From: a virus
Lineage: Duplodnaviria; Heunggongvirae; Uroviricota; Caudoviricetes
Virus record (IMG/VR): IMGVR_UViG_2622736468_000007
Reading direction: 5' to 3' (one strand)
Length of the DNA: 28,446 nt
Shown here: positions 26,952 through 27,222 of the stretch, in pieces
Position numbering within the stretch: position 1 is the stretch's first letter
How the letters are laid out: each line of letters opens with the position of its first letter
Notes under the pieces: model-generated
Database searches by the model: none
The model's input: the letters and a program-made list of their open reading frames with translations, nothing else
What the model was told of the DNA's origin: nothing
Program-made: the position numbers and the translations under genes

Positions 26952-27222
26952 ATTGAGGCGGTACAATCGCGCTCAGGCTGTCCCAGACGTGATGCATAAC
27001 ACCACCGGTTCCAGAATTTAAGGATCTGGACCTTCAATTATGCGTGTACCGCCTTATGCAACAATACTATAAAATTATTAAACGTCAAGATGTTCAATAA
27101 GATTTGGGCTTTCATGCCACAACACGAAAGTTCATTTTATAACGTCTAAAGCTTTCACAATGTCCGCTTTTCGCAGCTCAAAGCGGACAGTCATATTTGA
27201 TTGTATTCTGGCTACTGGAGCC

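Follow-up and report, generated by a model that had tools for sequence, protein, structure and literature searches.

Several described systems resemble, in one respect or another, the element considered here. IS231-MIC231 is an example of a mobile insertion cassette (MIC), the palindromic attC sites of integron cassettes are targeted by specialised insertion sequences (IS1111-attC), and intrinsic terminators as well as the sib/tI retroregulation elements of phage lambda are located downstream of int. The variable loci of P2-like phages (Z/fun) were reportedly studied by Nilsson and colleagues in 2004. The MIC concept covers units of passenger genes that lack a transposase and are bounded by the ends of insertion sequences (IS) or transposons (PMC4337579), and the IS481 family is characterized by TGT...ACA ends and target duplications of 2-15 bp (PMC10045372). 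The gene hotspots of P2 and P4 have been defined by their flanking genes; the mechanism of exchange at these sites was described as unknown, recombination next to cos was offered as a speculation, and neither repeats nor transposition were mentioned (Rousset et al., 2022; PMC9122126).

The stretch of DNA analysed here (hereinafter the window, 28,446 nt in its entirety) is a lambdoid-like prophage of Escherichia coli integrated beside yjjG, and by its sequence the segment 25203-27246 is a 2,044-bp cassette with a single cargo gene and no transposase. The cassettes of this family share with the IS481-family IS of the ISVvu4/ISSod13-like group the TGT...ACA termini, the terminal ~26 bp and the 7-bp duplication, but differ from them in the lack of a transposase, the ~90-bp A and B ends, the ~60-bp palindrome module and the passengers of 0.5-7 kb. 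Like MICs and the Tn3-derived TIMEs/MICs, they combine inverted-repeat ends, a target duplication and passenger genes with the absence of a transposase and a presumed mobilisation in trans; unlike the known MICs, they are linked to another transposase family, possess composite asymmetric ends with a conserved palindrome, and show a strong tie to phage ‘moron’/defence hotspots and to the 3′ ends of integrase genes. The cassettes occupy the same places as the variable loci and defence hotspots of P2-like phages (Z/fun), but, compared with the hotspot papers, the variable unit here is a transposon-like cassette with inverted repeats and duplications. With integron cassettes they have in common promiscuous cargo units bounded by imperfect palindromes; however, there is no integron integrase, the units are solitary rather than arrayed, the two inverted palindromes are embedded in ~90-bp ends flanked by 7-bp duplications, the neighbouring recombinase is a P4-type integrase and not IntI, and the movement would occur by transposition instead of attC x attI recombination. 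The hairpin within the cassette end resembles intrinsic terminators and lambda sib/tI in that a GC-rich stem follows closely on an integrase gene but, unlike these, has neither a U-tract nor covariation and is part of a dispersed mobile-element end.

The general class of passenger-carrying, transposase-less elements bounded by IS ends is already known. The particular cassette family, its IS481-type link and its occupancy of P2 variable loci and integrase-adjacent hotspots seem to be unreported in the papers searched: literature searches, including those with the literal end sequences, yielded no description of the ends.

The hairpin and the cassette in the window

The sequence-only reading of this region pointed to a stable stem without a U-tract between the convergent ends of a cargo ORF and an integrase gene. 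Such a stem is indeed present, with 10 perfect pairs rather than 9: the arms TGTCCGCTTT (27161-27170) and AAAGCGGACA (27180-27189) enclose a 9-nt loop, 34 nt past the stop codon of the integrase gene (TGA 27223-27225, minus strand), and the DUF4365 ORF stops 210 nt before the stem (26951). The predicted folding energy is -13.7 kcal/mol on the plus strand (z = -2.35) and -15.3 kcal/mol on the minus strand (centroid -15.1; z = -2.90), the z-scores being relative to dinucleotide shuffles. The hairpin has the stem of an intrinsic terminator without the U-tract: no run of T follows on either strand, the tails being AGUCAUAUUUGA (plus) and UUGUGAAAGCUU (minus), and the hairpin is absent from the terminator-scan calls in the window. 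The hallmarks of a structured RNA are absent as well, in that the stem is not supported by covariation, and Rfam contains nothing relevant either for the hairpin region (E up to 10) or from a scan of the whole window. There is no second copy of the hairpin in the window at up to two mismatches. In the window, six perfect inverted repeats have arms of 10 bp or more and spacers no longer than 40 nt (random expectation ~1, by our own estimate of 28,446 positions x 41 spacings x 4^-10), so that a 10-bp inverted repeat is by itself unremarkable and constitutes weak evidence; the hairpin is more than a chance occurrence because its position is kept in ~170 homologous element ends, among which the perfect 10-bp stem of the window is atypically good.

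Elsewhere in the window, gathering-level Rfam matches at 1336-1534, 6327-6443, 11977-12407 and 16200-16639 (IS009 RNA, the ALIL pseudoknot and two cspA-type thermoregulator leaders) represent typical lambdoid prophage content; ALIL is an IS3-type frameshift site, and an OrfB-like ORF is located at 5511-6464. The region 23836-24361 contains long ORFs in several frames on both strands and corresponds to a hypothetical gene that RefSeq lists as frameshifted (L001 3134-3456).

The features of the cassette and its flanks, in the order of their position, are the following.

25003..25200, plus strand: small Xis/AlpA-like HTH ORF in the left flank (weak HTH_17/MerR-type matches; ORF list)
25196..25202, no strand: left copy of the 7-bp duplication, AATAACA, degenerate, 4 of 7 positions equal to the right copy (junction sequences)
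25203..25289, minus strand: left end, B-type (nhmmer E = 1e-10, match 25285-25210; alignments)
25261..25286, minus strand: left-end counterpart of the palindrome, TGTTTTCT ... AGAGTGGGCA (alignment A3, columns 18-47)
25932..26951, plus strand: cargo gene, DUF4365, 339 aa (Pfam PF14280, E = 7e-19; RefSeq annotation)
27157..27246, plus strand: right end, A-type, from inner edge to outer tip (nhmmer E = 5e-16, match 27159-27246)
27161..27189, no strand: hairpin/palindrome, innermost conserved module of the right end (sequence, folding, alignment)
27176..27201, plus strand: best-conserved block among the ends of the family (loop, 3′ half; 3′ arm; subterminal repeat)
27220..27246, plus strand: terminal ~27-bp inverted repeat, homologous to the right inverted repeat of the IS481-family IS
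27223..28446, minus strand: P4-type tyrosine integrase (Pfam Arm-DNA-bind_3, Phage_int_M, Phage_integrase)
27247..27253, no strand: right copy of the 7-bp duplication, AGTAATG, within the integrase coding sequence

The boundaries 25203 and 27246 are assigned because both ends were found with an independent nhmmer profile, from which the window and its same-site relatives had been left out. The left side of the element is eroded: its tip reads TTTATTTGTTTCGATG where the consensus is TGTATTAGCTCAGATG (5 of 16 positions mismatched), and the counterpart of the palindrome can pair solely via G.T wobbles, with one mismatch in addition. The TAA stop codon of the Xis-like ORF (25198-25200) falls within the left duplication, for which relatives at the same integrase site retain AGTAATG or AGTAACG. 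On the right, the terminal repeat matches that of the IS at ~18 of 27 positions (our count by eye; 25-26 of 27 in recent copies), and the subterminal repeat, with the consensus CTGTCAGATT, reads CAGTCATATT. Because the integrase reading frame crosses the right duplication and stops inside the cassette end, the last seven codons of the integrase gene (CTISDSN) and its stop codon, 27223-27246, are element sequence. Among ~700 E. coli genomes, not a single one has this integrase without an insertion, which indicates, in agreement with the eroded left tip and duplication, that the copy in the window is old; given this decay and the absence of an empty integrase site, the insertion is deduced from its homology to clearer copies.

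The interior of the cassette contains the DUF4365 ORF only, and no IS481-type DDE (rve) transposase is encoded in 25203-27246. In a PADLOC search, the cargo protein matched Aga_REase (9e-9) and PDC-M02A (9e-5), a weak resemblance to REase domains associated with Argonaute and to a family of candidate defence proteins. The protein has a restriction-endonuclease-like fold and is a candidate defence gene product.

Cassette ends and their insertion sites

A megablast search with the segment 26900-27400 retrieved 22 genomes that are identical over the full query and ~680 more E. coli genomes in which the homology extends from ~27155, just outside the hairpin, into int; past the hairpin, the latter genomes carry another gene, namely Dsr1, an HNH protein with a dsRNA-binding protein, or a hypothetical protein. 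With the segment 27100-27260 as query, a more sensitive search yielded matches in integrase-free places, namely P2-like prophages, between D and ogr or beside tail-fibre genes, and a truncated nadS beside nadR, and searches with 27150-27250 detected P2-like phages and plasmids of Klebsiella, Enterobacter, Salmonella, Serratia and Pantoea. The piece common to these matches is ~90 nt long, with the hairpin first and ...TCTGAGCTAATACA last, and a profile of this piece detects, in nearly every locus, a second, inverted copy beyond the variable genes. Three collection scans (GTDB genomes, IMG/VR and metagenomes) led to ~170 loci. The ~170 distinct homologous ends come from E. coli, other Enterobacterales, phages, plasmids and metagenomes; ends are present in 147 loci and make up 69 left/right pairs that delimit elements of 731 bp to 7.5 kb. 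The A-type consensus end matches 1,364 of the 5,426 complete E. coli genomes, and ends are found in many genera, so that the hairpin is a common genomic repeat, the outcome that the sequence-only reading had named as evidence against its interpretation. Phage P4 contains no copy of the ends.

Nearly all distinct elements (56 of 58) combine one A and one B end, each ~90 bp long with the palindrome at its inner edge, and the tips read TGTATTAGCTCAGA...ACA. From the inside out, both types of ends consist of the palindrome GTCCGCT-loop-AGCRGAC, the block CTGTCAGATT, ~25 nt and C(C/T)GTCAGATCAAGTCTGAGCTAATACA. In the alignment (A3), conservation is highest over the columns that begin in the loop, cover the 3′ arm and reach into the adjacent CTGTCAGATT, a block that repeats a motif of the terminal inverted repeat. 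The 5′ arm is far less conserved, and the stem has been lost from some ends, in part also from that of L013, a related locus at the same integrase site. These losses, together with the presence of six comparable inverted repeats in the window, could be taken to mean that the palindrome has no function and is either a chance inverted repeat or a relic of a progenitor cassette. This is highly improbable, given that the palindrome is retained at its position in both types of ends, in many genera and in at least 125 of the ~174 distinct ends, next to unrelated cargo, and that its 3′ arm belongs to the most conserved block of the end.

Several loci deviate from the common arrangement. In L104 (2726-2772), two terminal repeats with nothing between them form a 47-bp perfect tip-to-tip palindrome (TGTATTAGCTCAGACTTGATCTG.CAGATCAAGTCTGAGCTAATACA), either a minimal element or a product of joined ends. 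A GC-rich class from soil metagenomes (L106, L114, L178, L110, L154, L092) has only the 27-bp tip in common with the other ends, followed by ...TGGGTGGTTAATCAGGCAGCCGC..., and may represent the termini of a further IS or cassette lineage within the group, carried by different hosts. In L005 (3070-3198) and L006 (3052-3188), the gene nadS, beside nadR, is annotated as truncated exactly at the start of an A-type end; the partner end is weak or missing in these loci, with several kb of accessory genes beyond.

The 7-bp flanks are perfectly identical in 32 of the 69 pairs and differ by one mismatch in 12 more, compared with 1.4% in shuffled pairings. The duplicated 7-mers, 31 of which are distinct, are mostly AT-rich, often with TAA or TTA at the centre. 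An empty counterpart is available for the D-ogr site: when both flanks of the element in an O26 prophage were joined with one copy of the repeat, the resulting 400-nt query was matched without a break (400 of 400 nt) in phage P88 and four other phages. ACTTAGA is present once in P88, and the O26 prophage has AATTAGA, the 1,776-bp element and ACTTAGA in succession. No empty site was found among E. coli for L007. The same unit also occurs at different sites: a 6.5-kb CBASS cassette is present, at 98.8% identity, between copies of CTTTATC and of CATCACC (L097/L101); the pairs L030/L184 and L127/L133 likewise have differing duplications; and besides the CBASS cassette, two cassette families are each found at two or three sites, ends included. 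Conversely, many cargos share one site, as in the case of the integrase site (DUF4365, Dsr1, HNH plus dsRBD, a hypothetical protein and an AAA ATPase), the ATTTAGA site and P2 G-FI. The family thus displays both an empty site and single units at several sites, as expected of MICs that insert into their targets.

Two other mechanisms were considered and rejected. A P4-type integrase gene is located within ~66 nt of an end in 18 loci, which raised the possibility of insertion by this tyrosine recombinase, but site-specific and Tn916-like mechanisms do not produce variable perfect duplications. Inversion of the cargo between the inverted palindromes is incompatible with the single orientation, relative to the ends, of the cargo in 33 of 33 homologous pairs.

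A candidate mobiliser and the role of the palindrome

Clustering and Pfam analysis of ~160 proteins encoded in or beside the cassettes revealed the transposases of passenger IS only (IS30-like, IS3, IS5 and IS110), and among the 137 ORF families of the 69 cassettes a transposase is never recurrent. The candidate mobiliser comes from ~25 metagenome loci that match the cassette ends solely in the outermost ~29 nt; in many of these, the tip is located 50-160 nt from the contig end, with the interior off the contig, as is the case for multicopy IS elements. Complete copies are IS of 1.2 kb encoding a 346-aa protein with the Pfam domains HTH_29 and rve, which scores 287 bits against the NCBIfam model NF033577 ‘IS481 family transposase’ (cutoff 224). 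Relatives on Vibrio and Shewanella plasmids are annotated as ISVvu4 or ISSod13, and full-length copies are present in 77 of the 5,426 E. coli genomes. The E. coli IS has the left inverted repeat TGTATTAGTCGCGACTTGATCTGACA and the right inverted repeat TGTATTAGCTCAGAC(C/T)TGATCTGACAG, to which the cassette tips (TGTATTAGCTCAGACTTGATCTGAC(G/A)G) are identical over 25-26 nt. Four full-length E. coli copies were examined, two of which are flanked by perfect 7-bp duplications, GCTAAAA and GATAAAG, and two of which have no duplication. Because the terminal ~26 bp and the 7-bp duplication are common to the IS and the cassettes, this IS481-family IS is the likely mobiliser. Given the terminal repeats matching those of an IS, the equal length of the duplication and the passenger genes unaccompanied by a transposase, we infer that the cassettes are non-autonomous mobile insertion cassettes derived from the IS481 family and mobilised in trans. 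An origin from the IS21 family was rejected for IS100, the ends of which are unrelated. In L191 (1729-2502), from another E. coli, a full-length IS481-family IS adjoins an integrase gene that is annotated without its N-terminus.

The hairpin is probably the innermost module of the right end of a non-autonomous cargo transposon that would be mobilised in trans by an IS481-type transposase, with the palindrome and the adjacent repeat acting as a binding site at the DNA level. The outer part of each end is the ~27-bp terminal inverted repeat (5′-TGTATTAGCTCAGACTTGATCTGACAG), and the cassette-specific inner ~60 bp comprise a second copy of the CTGTCAGAT motif followed directly by the palindrome; the A and B ends differ, and the sequence between the two palindromes is freely variable cargo. 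The DDE transposase of the 1.2-kb IS would most probably move the cassettes, each insertion duplicating 7 bp of the target, and the window contains an old, decayed copy at the 3′ ends of the Xis-like gene and the P4-type integrase gene, where it replaced the last codons of the latter. The palindrome and the adjacent repeat would be the DNA site of the transposase or of an accessory protein and would set the boundary of the cis-acting end on its inner side.

In the stem, the paired cells amount to 68.9%, compared with 67.6% in column shuffles (50 ends); the central pair is C.A on one strand in ~40% of the ends; and neither strand accounts for all of the G.T wobbles. A binding site in double-stranded DNA is favoured because the sequence is conserved without covariation and the palindrome abuts a repeat of the terminal motif. 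There are weak signs that pairing is maintained in the stem, such that a single-strand structure is possible: further pair types number 24 (shuffles, 17.5 +/- 1.6), and the base of the stem shows an alternation of TT/AA and CC/GG. A second long stem in the B ends appears, by eye, to be conserved in sequence, without compensatory change.

The same data bear on the possibility that the hairpin acts at the level of RNA, as a terminator lacking a U-tract, an insulator or a stabiliser of 3′ ends that would halt read-out from the cargo into int or the phage late genes, or would shield the 3′ end of the int mRNA. Its location 34 nt after the int stop codon and downstream of the cargo ORF, the stability of the stem on both strands, and one stem change in related integrase loci, a G.U wobble on the int-sense strand, are compatible with such a role, as is the alternation of pair types. 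Furthermore, every cassette has such stems at both boundaries of the cargo, which shows no polarity relative to the A and B ends (31 vs 21); because both ends carry a stem and the cargo faces either way, there is always one downstream of the cargo. Nevertheless, an RNA-level role is unlikely: besides the missing U-tract, terminator call and Rfam family, the paired fraction equals that of column shuffles, the wobbles occur on both strands, the stem is eroded in L013 at the very same integrase site, and the curated terminator of the P2 V operon is another hairpin, located within the cargo region. Accordingly, among the roles proposed in the sequence-only reading, a protein-binding site fits best, with the conservation at the sequence level and the 3′ arm fused to the most conserved block, whereas a bidirectional transcription barrier and an RNA-stability element gain no positive support. 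As the end of a mobile element, the hairpin was brought into the gap between the integrase and cargo genes and did not evolve for it, although it could act secondarily on the int or cargo transcripts.

The autonomous IS possesses neither the palindrome nor the ~60-bp subterminal module, which implies that they were not just taken over from the IS as binding sites of its transposase; their purpose may be a different one. In a further reading, the palindromes would be sites for the exchange or capture of cargo, with recombination or insertion at the two loops swapping the interior while the ends stay in place. Homology between cassettes with different cargo stops within a few bases of the 5′ arm, and the fixed old sites (integrase and P2 G-FI) combine site-specific outer ends with differing cargo. 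In three loci, the loop is interrupted precisely by an IS30-family IS flanked by a 2-bp GC duplication; four more loci have a lone IS repeat against the loop, directly beside the cargo, and in two loci an IS110-family end abuts the same position. However, conserved cis-acting ends combined with free cargo would produce the same pattern without any special site, ordinary homologous recombination between the 90-bp ends could account for the swaps, the IS junctions involve only 9 of the ~174 ends, no recombinase is associated with the cassettes, and the same cargo keeps its orientation and travels with its own ends. An exchange site is therefore quite unlikely, and the DNA-level binding site of the cargo-transposon model remains the preferred reading of the palindrome.

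The IS copies themselves deserve a brief description. The IS30-family IS (HTH_38 plus rve; inverted repeat TGTGAGTTCAACGGGTCGATGCAAC) is found at the centre of the loop in both orientations (L024 2425-3640, L026 320-1555 and L011 ~2312-3507, with the GC duplication in L024 and L026), and solo IS30-type remnants abut the cargo in L014, L037, L041 and L029. An IS110-family (ISEsa2-like) end, ...TTTTCACACAGCCTGC, is located at the position in the loop used by the IS30-like elements in L009 (~3100-3500) and L047 (~7240). Because the IS30-like and IS110-family ends share this position, two unrelated IS families target the palindrome.

Cargo genes and gene flux at phage hotspots

The cargo of the cassettes includes numerous defence-type genes, such as type II CBASS, a ubiquitin-like E1/E2/JAB system, a Thoeris-like TIR system, Dsr1, an OLD-like ATPase, HNH, Mrr and GIY-YIG nucleases, a KAP NTPase and AbiJ-like proteins; metabolic and transport genes are carried as well. 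The gene fun(Z) is the classical T5-exclusion, lysogenic-conversion gene of phage P2. In the P2 genome, fun(Z), which lies between G and FI, is bracketed by cassette ends at 15277-15361 and 17428-17514, and the left duplication contains the stop codon of G; by this arrangement fun(Z) is cargo of the present cassette family. In other P2-like prophages, the D-ogr and G-FI positions are occupied by other cargo. The curated V-operon terminator of P2, in the cargo region, is a hairpin separate from those of the ends. A weak third match (E = 0.01) is found in P2 (L186, NC_001895; element 15277-17514) at 31570-31620, between tin and old.

A bolder proposal, which is unlikely, is that the subterminal palindrome modules turn the IS481-type end into a platform for capture and exchange, such that exchange at the two loops combined with mobilisation in trans would be a main engine of gene turnover at the ‘moron’/defence hotspots of P2-like phages and next to P4-type integrases. 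If true, this would answer the question of gene exchange left by Rousset et al.

The hairpin alone is a minor and ordinary feature, and the element that hosts it is of greater importance. The cassette family is probably an under-described part of enterobacterial mobile-element biology, with the A-type end alone present in a quarter of the complete E. coli genomes. The existence of the cassettes explains oddities of annotation such as the altered C-terminus of the integrase and the truncated nadS, and the signature of A and B ends could be used to find new cargo and hence candidate defence genes. The cassettes deliver CBASS, Thoeris-like, Dsr1, nuclease and other genes to P2-like phages, to plasmids and chromosomes and to the 3′ ends of integrase genes, and they provide a concrete mechanism, open to testing, for some of the gene turnover at the defence hotspots of phages.
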